64,000 nt of DNA, taken from positions 1,184,001 through 1,248,000 of the forward strand of contig OY970065.1 in NCBI GenBank assembly GCA_963705295.1, given 5' to 3'. A program made the position numbers and the translations under genes. This document shows, one piece after another, positions 17,120-19,858 of the stretch. Source of the stretch: Parachlamydiales bacterium. Its GTDB lineage: Bacteria > Chlamydiota > Chlamydiia > Chlamydiales > Rhabdochlamydiaceae. Positions within the stretch are counted from its first letter, which is position 1. Every line of letters starts with the position of its first letter. The notes beneath the pieces are model-generated. The model was given only the letters and a program-made list of their open reading frames with translations. It did no database searches and was not told the DNA's origin.

Positions 17120-19858
17120 ATGCCAGGAATTCCACATTCATTTCATGATAATGATTTGAAAGATAAAATCGAAGATTTATGTCGGATTCCAGAACTTAAA
17201 AAGTTTGCATCTAAGAAACCAAGGGGGAAATTTCTCTTTGTTGTCATTTTAGTGCTTTTTACGTCGGTTTTGATCGGATTTATTCTTTTAAAAACACAGC
17301 CCACTGAAAAGTACTTCTCGTATCTTAAAGGACCATTGCCCGATTTCATTGGAAGAGAAAAATACCTCGAAATTTTACATAGAGATTTATTGCAAAAAGA
17401 TTTTCACAATAACCTCCACATCAAAATCGTGTGGGGAAAAGGGGGAATGGGTAAAACGGAACTGGCTAGAGAGTTTGCCTATCGATATCGCTCCAATTTT
17501 TCTTTTATTTGGACATTTTATTGCGACAATCAGGAACAAATTGACCAAGGTTATCGTGATCTCGCAAAAATGTTAAATATTTTGAATCCTCAAGATAGTC
17601 TAAACAGAATAAAAGAAGTCGTTCATTTGTATCTTGAAAATCATCCTTTTAAGCGGCCTTGGCTCCTTATTTATGACAATACTGAAAAAGAATTTTCTTA
17701 TCCTCAAAGAGGGGGATCGATTTTAGTCACTTCCCAATTACAACTCCTCAATCCGGAATTTCTTTTAGAGGTTGAACCTTTTTCTCAACAAGAATCTCTA
17801 GAACTTTTAGAAAAAATCACCTCGGAAAAAAAAGGGAAACCGATGGAGCTTCTAGCTCATGATCTAGAGTATCTTCCTATTCTGATCAATTACGCGGGCC
17901 ATTACATTAAATCGACACCCGGTTGTAATACATCTGAGTATCGGAAGCTCTTCTCCGAGCGTCTTATTGGAAAAGAAGGTCCCCTTTGGATAGAGATGGA
18001 TGTCAATCTAAGATACGTAAAAAGCTTGGCAACTTCTTGGCAGCTTTCATTGAATTCTTTAGAAAAAACGAACCCTCTTGCCATCCAATGGTTATTTCTT
18101 TGTAGTTATCTTTATCCGGAACATATCTGTGAAAAATGGATCGATGATTGGCTGATGGATAAAATGCCAGACAAGACCCAATCGATTGTTTTGGAAAGAA
18201 AAAAAATATGGAAAATCCTTCAGAATCGAGGTTTGGTAAGCTATGAGGATAAAACGAAAACCTTCTCCATTCACCGATTTCTGCAATTTATTATTCGTGA
18301 AAATAGGAAAAATCATCTTGAGGCAGACTTAAGCCAAGCGATATCTACCTTAGTCAATAATGCTGAAGGTTCCCTATTCTTAGATCAAATCTTATGGGAA
18401 GAAGCCAATTTTTGGTACTACCATGCATGCGAGGTCCGAAAATGGCTGCTCCAATGCAACCTTCCATCGTGGAGTCATAAAGACAAAAAAAATTGTTTTC
18501 TTCTATTCAATGCCATAGCCGATTGGTGCAACTCAAATTCCCATTTTGAAGAGGCCCTATTAAGCTTCGAAAAATGTCTCAGTTTTAAACCAGAAATTCT
18601 TGCTGAGAACTCTCCAGAAATTGGTAGAGTTTACAGCCAAATGTCTTGGACTTTGTTTATTTTATTTCGACGGAAAGAAGCTCTCAATACATGTCAAAAA
18701 GCTGAAGAGATTCAGCGTGTTTTTTCAGGAGATGCCGTTTTACAGTATGCTGAAACACTCGAATTTATCGGATTTTTTCTAGCACGAAACGAAAAACATG
18801 AAGAATCATTAGGATATTATAGACGGGCTCTTAAAATTCATCTGGAAAGTCTTGGTTGGTTTGGGGACATAGAAAATAACCTTGACTCGATGCTTAAGTA
18901 CATCAAAGAAATCGGTAAACAAATCACTTCTTTCGATAAAGAAGGGCATCACTCAGAAGCCCTAAAATTATGTGACAGGATCATTAGAATAGGTATCAAC
19001 TTAGTCAAAATTGCCAGATCTCTCGTGATCGTTGACAATACGACTATTAACCCGACATGCAAAAAAGAGACAAGATGCGTAAGCGAACCCCTGTCAGATC
19101 GAAGCGTCAGCGGTCCGACCGACGAGGATCATAGCCGACAGGCTAGGCCGAGGAGGAGGAACGATCTGTCAGGGGTGCAGCCAGCAGGTTGTCTCTTTTT
19201 TGCGTGGAGGGTTAATAAAGCACAAGAATTTAGTGAAAAAGCATTTGAGATTTTTCAAGAAAGTCGCAGAATCAAGCCTCTTTCTTTTCCTTCTGGCTTA
19301 GTTTCACGGTGGGCTCCTTTTGCTTTAGTCTATCAAGGGTGGTGTTGTTCTAAATTAGGAAAATACCGCGAAGCTGAGAAGTTCTATAAAAAAGCTTTAT
19401 CACTGTCGATGTCGCTATTCGGGAAAAATCACAGAGACCGCGCGCATATCTTGAATGAAATTGGCATGAGCTACTTATGGACAAATAATTTCAAGGAGGC
19501 ACGAAAAGTTTTCAGATTGGGCCTTAAACAAAATGAAGGAAAAATAAATTTTAGTACCATTGAAGCTTATAAAATCATCGGACAGACCTATATCAAGGAA
19601 GGAAGAATTAAAAAAGGACTAAAATATCTGTTAAAACCGATCCAGGCATGTGCCGAAGCTGGTCAAAACCCGGCCATGCTCGCAACCCTTTTAGAACTCT
19701 TTCATTCTACCCTTAAAAATATTCCGAATCAGAAAGAATCGGTGCAAGATGCTGCTCTTATAGCCTACACTCTTAGTAAGGAGGCTTTTGGCGAAAGTCA
19801 CCCGCTTTCAAACGCGTTTTTCGTAATTTTTCGAGATAGAGATAAAGGACCGGGGTGA
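17120..19858 (+). CDS. NB-ARC (STAND) NTPase with TPRs and N-terminal TM helix
   Basis: FIGRE, Walker A GKGGMGKT, Walker B WLLIYDN, ILVTS, LPILI, IHR (MHD-like) motifs; C-terminal TPR helices. Confidence 0.88.
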   Translation: MPGIPHSFHDNDLKDKIEDLCRIPELKKFASKKPRGKFLFVVILVLFTSVLIGFILLKTQPTEKYFSYLKGPLPDFIGREKYLEILHRDLLQKDFHNNLHIKIVWGKGGMGKTELAREFAYRYRSNFSFIWTFYCDNQEQIDQGYRDLAKMLNILNPQDSLNRIKEVVHLYLENHPFKRPWLLIYDNTEKEFSYPQRGGSILVTSQLQLLNPEFLLEVEPFSQQESLELLEKITSEKKGKPMELLAHDLEYLPILINYAGHYIKSTPGCNTSEYRKLFSERLIGKEGPLWIEMDVNLRYVKSLATSWQLSLNSLEKTNPLAIQWLFLCSYLYPEHICEKWIDDWLMDKMPDKTQSIVLERKKIWKILQNRGLVSYEDKTKTFSIHRFLQFIIRENRKNHLEADLSQAISTLVNNAEGSLFLDQILWEEANFWYYHACEVRKWLLQCNLPSWSHKDKKNCFLLFNAIADWCNSNSHFEEALLSFEKCLSFKPEILAENSPEIGRVYSQMSWTLFILFRRKEALNTCQKAEEIQRVFSGDAVLQYAETLEFIGFFLARNEKHEESLGYYRRALKIHLESLGWFGDIENNLDSMLKYIKEIGKQITSFDKEGHHSEALKLCDRIIRIGINLVKIARSLVIVDNTTINPTCKKETRCVSEPLSDRSVSGPTDEDHSRQARPRRRNDLSGVQPAGCLFFAWRVNKAQEFSEKAFEIFQESRRIKPLSFPSGLVSRWAPFALVYQGWCCSKLGKYREAEKFYKKALSLSMSLFGKNHRDRAHILNEIGMSYLWTNNFKEARKVFRLGLKQNEGKINFSTIEAYKIIGQTYIKEGRIKKGLKYLLKPIQACAEAGQNPAMLATLLELFHSTLKNIPNQKESVQDAALIAYTLSKEAFGESHPLSNAFFVIFRDRDKGPG
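19045..19217. mobile_element. 173 bp TA-bounded palindromic element inserted in frame in the NB-ARC/TPR gene
   Basis: TATTAACCC...GGGTTAATA ends; GCAAAAAAGAGACAA/TTGTCTCTTTTTTGC and CCCCTGTCAGATCG/CGATCTGTCAGGGG arms; net 171 bp. Confidence 0.88.

Follow-up and report, generated by a model that had tools for sequence, protein, structure and literature searches.

A TA-flanked palindromic element in frame within a STAND-NTPase/TPR gene of a chlamydia-like bacterium

Introduction

In-frame insertion of palindromes into protein-coding genes is a textbook oddity of Rickettsia. Here we describe a palindromic element of 173 bp that lies in frame inside the gene of a 912-amino-acid (aa) STAND NTPase with TPR-like repeats in Parachlamydiales bacterium (Rhabdochlamydiaceae; GenBank assembly GCA_963705295.1). 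The element occupies positions 19045–19217 of the window, i.e., of the whole analyzed stretch of 64,000 nucleotides (nt; contig OY970065.1, positions 1,184,001 to 1,248,000 of the forward strand); coordinates of other copies in this genome are those of the genome. We hold with good confidence that it is a non-autonomous MITE (miniature inverted-repeat transposable element) which targets TA and was inserted in frame, probably adding a disordered loop of 57 residues to the encoded protein. The kind of event, in-frame insertion of a palindromic MITE, is known; the present, well-supported case of it concerns an element family and a group of bacteria that are both new.

The closest described systems are the Rickettsia palindromic elements (RPEs). 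These are about 150 bp long and form ten families, and for Rickettsia conorii the main text of a 2024 review gives 44 integrations in genes, nearly half of them in open reading frames (ORFs) as in-frame fusions (PMC10969869). In R. bellii, according to the main text of the relevant study, 526 RPEs are present and 53 of them lie within genes coding for proteins (PMC1458961), a share similar to that found here, where 5 of the 66 copies with clear ends are read through within long ORFs, whereas the ORF share in R. conorii is higher. Like RPEs, the element described here is a short palindrome of an obligate intracellular bacterium, adds a peptide in frame in some of its copies, and has no known transposase of its own. 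Unlike RPEs, it has (T/C)TAAC ends in inverted orientation and a TA that is clearly duplicated, and its host belongs to another phylum, with carriers in two families of its own order. The element works like an RPE; this likeness is one of behavior and does not by itself imply membership in the RPE families (RPE-1 to RPE-10). In this sense the RPE-like in-frame element proposed in an earlier sequence-only reading of the stretch is supported, with this copy and three 161-bp copies in frame in a family of 69 full-length copies.

The Correia (nemis) elements of Neisseria and other TA-duplicating MITEs resemble the element in size (~100–200 bp), in terminal inverted repeats and high copy number, in their location mostly at gene borders and in the capacity to form RNA hairpins. 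Correia elements duplicate TA, and duplication of a TA target is also the family rule for IS630/Tc1-mariner. However, the Correia host is unrelated, and Correia elements are not known for in-frame insertions into proteins. According to the main text of the 2024 review, Correia elements provide promoters and integration host factor (IHF) sites, transcripts that contain them are cleaved by RNase III at the inverted repeats, and enterobacterial repetitive intergenic consensus (ERIC) elements have RNase E effects (PMC10969869). The same text, citing Delihas (2007), mentions ORFs carried by MITEs that are fused in frame to host genes in enterobacteria and cyanobacteria (PMC10969869). The intragenic ERIC and other enterobacterial and cyanobacterial MITEs belong to other families and hosts, and here, in addition, some genes end at stop codons contributed by the termini.

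In the literature searched (main texts, without supplements), we came across no description of chlamydial MITEs or RPE-like elements. The string “Chlamyd” does not occur in the main text of the 2024 review of prokaryotic MITEs (PMC10969869), the Waddlia genome paper, in its main text, counts only repeats longer than 200 bp, and the Cardinium MITE paper deals with an IS982-derived element.

Results and Discussion

The element and its host gene

The host ORF and the parts of the element are located in the window as follows (two dots separate the first and last position; symmetrical features carry no strand):

17120..19858, plus strand: host ORF, 912 aa, with an N-terminal hydrophobic helix, a P-loop STAND NTPase and C-terminal TPR-like repeats (ORF list, Pfam, NCBIfam, paralogs)
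17231..17290, plus strand: hydrophobic stretch, residues 38–57, probable membrane anchor (judged by eye from the translation)
17435..17458, plus strand: Walker A motif GKGGMGKT, residues 106–113 (inside the AAA_16 and NB-ARC matches)
19045..19046, no strand: left copy of the TA target-site duplication (TA flanks nearly all copies)
19047..19215, no strand: element body, 169 bp, TTAACCC...GGGTTAA, short form of family A (copy identity and an alignment of 16 copies)
19047..19078, no strand: left arm of the terminal inverted repeat (repeat pair; the arms co-vary among subfamilies)
19184..19215, no strand: right arm of the terminal inverted repeat (repeat pair; arm co-variation)
19087..19101, no strand: left side of the inner stem (93% complementary; within the minimum-energy hairpin)
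19162..19176, no strand: right side of the inner stem (pairs with 19087..19101)
19046..19216, plus strand: 57 inserted codons, residues 643–699 (host-frame reading and paralog alignment)
19139..19141, plus strand: codon 674, CAG (T>C at 19139 leaves the host frame open; copy alignment)
19216..19217, no strand: right copy of the TA target-site duplication (excision with one TA leaves the gene colinear with all nine paralogs)

The sequence-only reading described a 173-bp hairpin, TA|TTAACCC...GGGTTAA|TA with both TAs included, free of stop codons within the 912-aa ORF, and this is borne out by the sequence, by the fold and by the extent of the ORF. The repeat finder detects terminal arms of 34 nt (19045–19078 and 19184–19217, i.e., with the flanking TAs) that are 85% complementary, together with the inner stem of 15 nt. 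As a single strand, the element adopts one long hairpin structure with a folding energy of −93.7 kcal/mol, compared with −48.6 ± 4.0 kcal/mol for shuffled sequences (z = −11.2; none of 200 shuffles as good). The ORF runs through the element uninterrupted, the host frame entering as Ile-Asn-Pro and leaving as Arg-Val-Asn. The encoded peptide is indeed out of character, as had been noted: G+C content is 53.8% in the element vs. 37.5% in the rest of the ORF, where no other 173-nt segment exceeds 47.4%, and hydrophobic residues make up 19% of the insert vs. 37%, with enrichment in Arg and in Pro/Gly/Ser.

A hairpin of such stability might suggest an effect at the RNA level, in which case the element would serve as a processing or decay site or as a ribosome barrier in the mRNA and would tune or silence its gene, with the open frame incidental. 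This possibility, which is compatible with the insertion of a MITE, appears unlikely to us as the explanation of the locus. The stability of the hairpin, the fact that many copies lie immediately upstream of genes or at their ends, and the RNase III and RNase E effects cited above for Correia and ERIC elements agree with it. However, it leaves unexplained why this copy and three other internal copies are free of stops and of a length divisible by three (3n); there is no T run after the stem, so that the element is not a canonical intrinsic terminator, the sole terminator-like call lies inside the stem, and no Rfam family matches the element.

Within the host protein, TPR families are found at residues 734–806 with E-values of 1e-12 to 4e-21, above the Pfam cut-offs, whereas AAA_16 (E = 1.9e-5), NB-ARC (E = 0.0045) and DUF7779 (E = 3.4e-4) each match below theirs. 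The NCBIfam model NF040586 (FxSxx-COOH system TPR protein) covers residues 74–416 (E = 1.2e-59), below its equivalog cut-off, and among the PADLOC models of anti-phage defense none fits the protein beyond a weak TPR match. The genome encodes nine paralogs with 45–49% identity over the N-terminal ~600 residues. Taken together, an NLR-like STAND NTPase with a TPR-type C-terminal domain seems a fair description of the protein. The earlier placement of the insertion in a TPR of an NLR-like protein holds as far as the STAND/TPR architecture is concerned, whereas the NB-ARC match itself falls below the cut-off and the Pfam TPR calls begin only downstream, some 35 residues past the insert. Assignment of the site to a TPR-like helix pair follows from the paralog alignment and the fold model discussed below, not from the Pfam TPR calls, and a ligand-sensing role of the region would be suggested by analogy with the STAND architecture.

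The host belongs to a family of ten STAND-NTPase/TPR proteins with an N-terminal hydrophobic helix (other members are encoded, e.g., at 608338–610764, 611216–613672, 773383–775713 and 775948–778191), and several of its members have further elements of the MITE family beside them (608097, 775775).

The duplicated target is TA

The first position of the left flank is T in 62 of the 66 copies and the second is A in all 66 (these counts exclude three copies with unclear ends, 240087, 517872 and 763685, and all 12 fragments). In a relative from the same genus, two abutting elements read ...GGGTTAA-TA-TTAACCC... and share a single TA, so that TA is not part of the element. In three copies the first terminal base is not T, and the ends read CTAAC...GTTAG (two copies) or ATAAC...GTTAT (one copy); they form an inverted repeat in all three cases, which excludes a direct duplication of TTAA. 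Furthermore, 12 ORFs of at least 80 aa end at the first TAA of an element; in 11 of these, excision in silico brings back a TAA or TAG stop at that very TA, and by our estimate, the chance expectation for restoration of a stop is about 0.01 if the next base is free. Three independent lines of evidence thus favor TA as the duplicated target, in line with the sequence-only reading, over duplication of TTAA or no duplication at all. With a duplicated TA, the net gain of this copy is 171 bp, that is 57 codons, and the frame is kept.

Duplication of a TTAA target and CCC...GGG ends are the signature of piggyBac, and the canonical ends can also be read as TTAA|CCC...GGG|TTAA. For a piggyBac-like element, the empty site would read TATTAATA and the net gain would be 165 bp, which is 3n as well. 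However, this would turn the outer TA into an unexplained invariant 8-bp target, and the gapless alignment with the paralogs requires removal of 57 residues, not 55. Given also the variant ends, inverted and not direct repeats in three of three, the TA shared by two elements, and the 11 of 12 stops that are restored only when TA is excised, this alternative is refuted for practical purposes and we consider it highly improbable.

The empty site and its position in the fold

All nine paralogs are gapped across the 57 residues, and the host protein, once these residues are excised in silico, aligns to each of the nine without a gap at the site. The empty-site comparison that had been suggested thus gave a clear result at the level of paralogs, the 57 residues being missing from all nine, with true orthologs not found. 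In the paralogs, the junction maps to the turn that links both helices of a TPR-like pair, in agreement with the earlier statement that removal of the element with one TA yields a normal pair of this kind. The empty site is read here from paralogs of 45–49% identity, without an occupied/empty pair of true alleles. Two freshwater/lake metagenome runs examined over 18400–19900 contained no joints and no empty allele; they yielded one identical contig of 151 nt (19080–19230) and unrelated fragments of efflux pump genes.

An AlphaFold2 model was built for residues 440–912 with an alignment of eight paralogs, all of which lack the insert (mean predicted local distance difference test score, pLDDT, 82.5; predicted TM-score, pTM, 0.78). 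The model contains continuous helical repeats on either side of the insert, the flanking helices mostly scoring 85–95, whereas model residues 202–249 score below 50 (the insert corresponds to model residues 204–260); the last ~11 residues of the insert extend the following helix. The model shows only that the flanking repeats can still pack.

The opposite polarity, with the segment ancestral in this gene and lost from the paralogs, or with the genomic repeats derived from this gene, has nothing in its favor beyond the absence of a true ortholog. The 69 copies are mostly located outside genes, the same ends are found in two bacterial families, the segment is palindromic with foreign G+C content, and all nine paralogs are colinear without it; the probability of this scenario is negligible in our view.

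Another copy of the element, 608097–608281, is located next to a tandem duplication of two paralogs with 85% identity (608281 and 611159), which begins exactly at the right end of this element. A duplication that starts at the end of the element gives no empty site; the element may mark a rearrangement boundary.

A superfamily of 69 full-length copies

The genome is a single contig of 2,131,910 bp with a G+C content of 43.8%. A BLAST search with the element itself recovered about 29 full-length look-alikes with 77–98% identity; this copy is 95–98% identical to 7 other copies and 77–91% identical to about 20 more. A scan based on the termini detected 56 elements, and BLAST searches with those identified 81 loci, namely, the same 56, 13 further full-length copies and 12 fragments. 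The superfamily in this 2.13-Mb genome therefore consists of 69 full-length copies and 12 fragments with the boundary pattern TA|YTAAC...GTTAR|TA, so that the termini do occur elsewhere in the genome, as the sequence-only reading had set out as a test. The copies are 159–209 bp long, and the longest stop-free frames are read-throughs of 53–61 codons. Three classes are distinguished by length (both TAs counted):

Class A: 172/173, 184/185, 197 and 209 bp
Class B: 161 and 162 bp
Class C: 163–165 bp, one of them in the window

The latter is the second member of the superfamily in the window:

42272..42436, no strand: family C element, 165 bp including both TAs (ends as in the other copies, but a distinct interior)

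It is intergenic, between co-directional ORFs, and begins 4 nt past the stop codon of ORF 41282..42268. The 12-nt steps between the class A lengths (173, 185, 197 and 209 bp) correspond to internal modules and preserve the frame (e.g., 910056–910240, 1708761–1708957 and 1523266–1523474).

The first 7 nt inside the TA are nearly invariant, whereas positions 8–24 vary between subfamilies, and here the two arms of each copy co-vary: the match of a copy to its own other arm is 0.80–1.00, compared with 0.31–0.58 for randomly paired arms. Over the first 34 nt, the own-arm match in the 66 copies is 0.89 vs. 0.74 in shuffled pairings. The small size without a transposase gene, the terminal inverted repeats, the target-site duplication and the many dispersed copies are all typical features of MITEs; no parental autonomous element with matching ends was found, and no long element bounded by these ends is present in this genome or in five relatives.

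Three elements of the superfamily are located within 1.25 kb (726171, 726852 and 727240; region 726171–727411), which may be either a degraded region or a preferred landing zone. Another palindrome family with TA flanks is represented in the same genome by an in-frame copy that follows codon 3 of an aldo/keto reductase gene.

Behavior of the family in and around genes

After in-silico excision, 14 of the 66 copies are found at least 10 codons inside an ORF of at least 150 aa, compared with 2407 of 3000 random TA sites (80%), which means that insertions inside genes are strongly under-represented. The five copies that are read through within long ORFs, four of them with a net length of 3n, are the following:

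This copy, 173 bp: 912-aa STAND/TPR protein
161-bp copy, 53 codons: AbiEii-like protein, 339 aa
161-bp copy, 53 codons: arylsulfotransferase-like protein, 629 aa
161-bp copy, 53 codons: 730-aa protein without a Pfam match
184-bp copy: malic-enzyme gene

The three 161-bp copies use the same peptide frame and, together with this copy, represent in-frame palindromes with a conserved peptide, as in RPEs. In the malic-enzyme gene (1794343–1795713, minus strand), the 184-bp element replaces the part that matches residues ~370–510 of a 572-aa reference, and the reading frame nevertheless continues into ~40 authentic residues at the C-terminus; the gene is probably a remnant that has been kept open. 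The arylsulfotransferase-like ORF (1453218–1455107) carries two elements, a 163-bp one over the apparent N-terminal ~60 codons and the 161-bp one at residues 445–498; orthologs of this host were found neither in 60 genomes of the family nor in the PDB.

Another mode of coexistence with genes is apparent at gene ends. Ten elements are located in the stop codons of genes (e.g., 351084–351267, 662799–662963 and 1612929–1613092), the stop being provided by the terminal TAT-TAA, and the two ends of elements 351084 and 662799 each supply both stops of a convergent gene pair. Likewise, at one locus of a relative (element at 1501–1679 of locus L110), the stops of convergent xylose isomerase and xylulokinase genes both come from the TAT-TAA of the element; a candidate read-through at this locus was rejected, the apparent open frame being antisense. 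Among 28 distinct full-length elements in the retrieved loci of relatives, one read-through was identified, in a 173-bp copy from the second family of carriers, where a 271-aa ORF (905–1720 of locus L078, minus strand, genome G200) reads through the element for 57 residues, at 34 residues from the ORF start.

A stop codon lost from this copy

We followed the host frame through 16 family A copies, all in the orientation of this one. Where this copy has CAG as codon 674, TAG stands in 11 of the other 15 and a 1-nt deletion in the remaining 4; none of them shares the CAG. Compared with the consensus of eight short copies, this copy shows three differences, at 19058, 19139 and 19161, and it is the one at 19139 that removes the stop; we estimate the neutral chance of such removal at ~5% (8 of 519 possible changes, times 3). 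With CAG in place of TAG, the ORF stays open and takes in the 213 residues of the helical-repeat domain that follow the insert, and all five family-invariant residues located downstream of the insert (A313, G343, Y385, K387 and K393 in alignment A1) are kept. The TAG>CAG difference points to selection for the open frame or, alternatively, to retention of an insertion that came from a rare open donor.

Distribution and the missing mobilizing enzyme

The element was identified in 5 of the 18 other genomes of the genus. Across the phylum, it is present in at least 17 of 299 other genomes, which belong to two families only (8 of 61 and 9 of 47), and in none of the remaining 191; given that two candidates were scored per genome and one genome was left unscored, these counts are floors. 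The ends of the element are identical in the two families.

The sequence-only reading had further pointed to IS630/Tc1-mariner-derived MITEs, for which TA duplication is typical. The TA duplication holds, and it is this feature, shared with the MITEs derived from that family, that would suggest such an origin by analogy. In contrast to those MITEs, the element has no DDE_3 (IS630-type) transposase in its own genome; genes of this type are present in three of the five element-bearing relatives tested, and the multi-copy IS630-type element of one of these relatives (genome G115) has ends unlike those of the MITE. Pfam searches for piggyBac and mariner domains yielded no match, the control being silent as well. 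To our knowledge, there are many MITE families without a known parent, and the missing parent accordingly lowers only the claim of derivation from IS630.

A proposed history and the points against it

Established at the level of sequence are the element family with its termini and TA duplication, the in-frame geometry, the absence of the segment from the paralogs and the stop-removing difference. Building on these, we propose that the TA-targeting MITE inserted into a TA spanning the codons of Thr642 and Lys700 (numbering of the occupied protein) of the STAND-NTPase/TPR gene, where the net gain of 171 bp would have kept the frame. Mobilization would have occurred in trans, through a DDE transposase that duplicates TA and that this genome no longer has. 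In the protein, the insert would be translated and tolerated as a surface loop, rich in Arg, Ser and Pro and for the most part disordered, located where one repeat helix turns into the next, and the TAG>CAG change could then have been selected by the host.

Several results weigh against this history. The best matches to the host protein in 18 genomes of the same genus show 35–37% identity, a search of one genome per species returned distant TPR proteins only, and among 5.8 billion proteins the only close match is the protein itself, the next one showing 24% identity; at the DNA level, none of the 66 in-silico junctions has a spanning match that would represent a paralogous empty site. The low pLDDT of the insert is to be expected anyway because the aligned paralogs lack it. 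The search for DDE_3 transposases was negative for this genome (as a control, it was positive in 5 of 14 genomes) and no multi-copy insertion sequence (IS) longer than 500 bp is present in it, which leaves mobilization unexplained. As to the check that had been proposed, namely, whether intragenic copies have lengths of 3n, four of the five read-throughs do, but the enrichment among internal copies is not significant (4/30 vs. 1/36; one-sided Fisher p = 0.13), and neither is that within the 161/162-bp class (3/10 vs. 0/14; p = 0.059). An intergenic sister copy, 608097, is also open in the host frame, by virtue of two indels, and a single stop-removing substitution is thin evidence for selection. 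Finally, even with the ORF intact, expression could suffer from an mRNA hairpin of −94 kcal/mol.

Some of these points are shared by an alternative scenario, in which the element is a neutral passenger in a dying gene: the insertion would be recent, the frame would have stayed open by luck or thanks to a CAG donor, and the protein would be dispensable among ten paralogs. Indeed, the nine other paralogs could cover the function, this copy is only ~1.7% diverged from the consensus (the three differences), the element-bearing malic-enzyme gene is clearly degraded and yet open, and, as mentioned, the 3n enrichment is not significant. However, the T>C change is found only in the genic copy, the sister copies having TAG or the deletion; there is no stop or frameshift in 912 codons, and both the Walker A motif and the family-invariant residues downstream of the insert are intact. 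We consider this scenario improbable, slightly more so than an effect at the RNA level, and favor the in-frame insertion of a MITE into a gene that would still be in use.

Palindromes in gene-dense genomes

A TA-duplicating family that behaves like RPEs in a second, unrelated obligate intracellular group would suggest that in-frame palindromes are a general outcome of the encounter between a dense genome and a small mobile hairpin and not a peculiarity of rickettsiae. Tentatively, one could go further and view the TA-flanked fold-back MITE superfamily of the two chlamydia-like families as built for gene-dense genomes and as “protein-coding palindromes” that arose independently for a second time, outside Rickettsia, although we regard this as a possibility more doubtful than not. 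Under this interpretation, insertion in one entry phase may let the TAA-bearing ends replace the host stop, or even both stops of a convergent pair, at the cost of one Tyr each, whereas in other phases stop-free 3n variants, differing in 12-nt steps, may be read through as hydrophilic loops. In the present case, the target of this process may be the sensor domain in a STAND-NTPase family that has expanded, and host selection may have repaired the frame through TAG>CAG.

The most instructive details, in our opinion, are the targeting of stop codons and the lost TAG, the latter being a concrete example of a premature stop that is brought in by an element and then lost. The host protein also offers a natural test of the tolerance of a helical-repeat sensor to a loop of 57 residues. 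For genome annotation, the superfamily serves as a warning because its elements make up N- and C-terminal tails as well as internal segments of predicted proteins.

Neighboring genes

Two elements, 760291–760452 and 240087–240247, are located 39 and ~100 nt, respectively, upstream of TLC (ATP/ADP translocase-type) genes that start at 760491 and 240351, and a promoter or regulatory role of the elements at these positions is possible. The genome encodes four to five such TLC nucleotide transporters, and an F-box-like protein is encoded near the host gene. The 3' end of the host ORF overlaps, by 86 nt (19773–19858), the convergent ORF of an AcrB-type efflux pump (19773..22826, minus strand).

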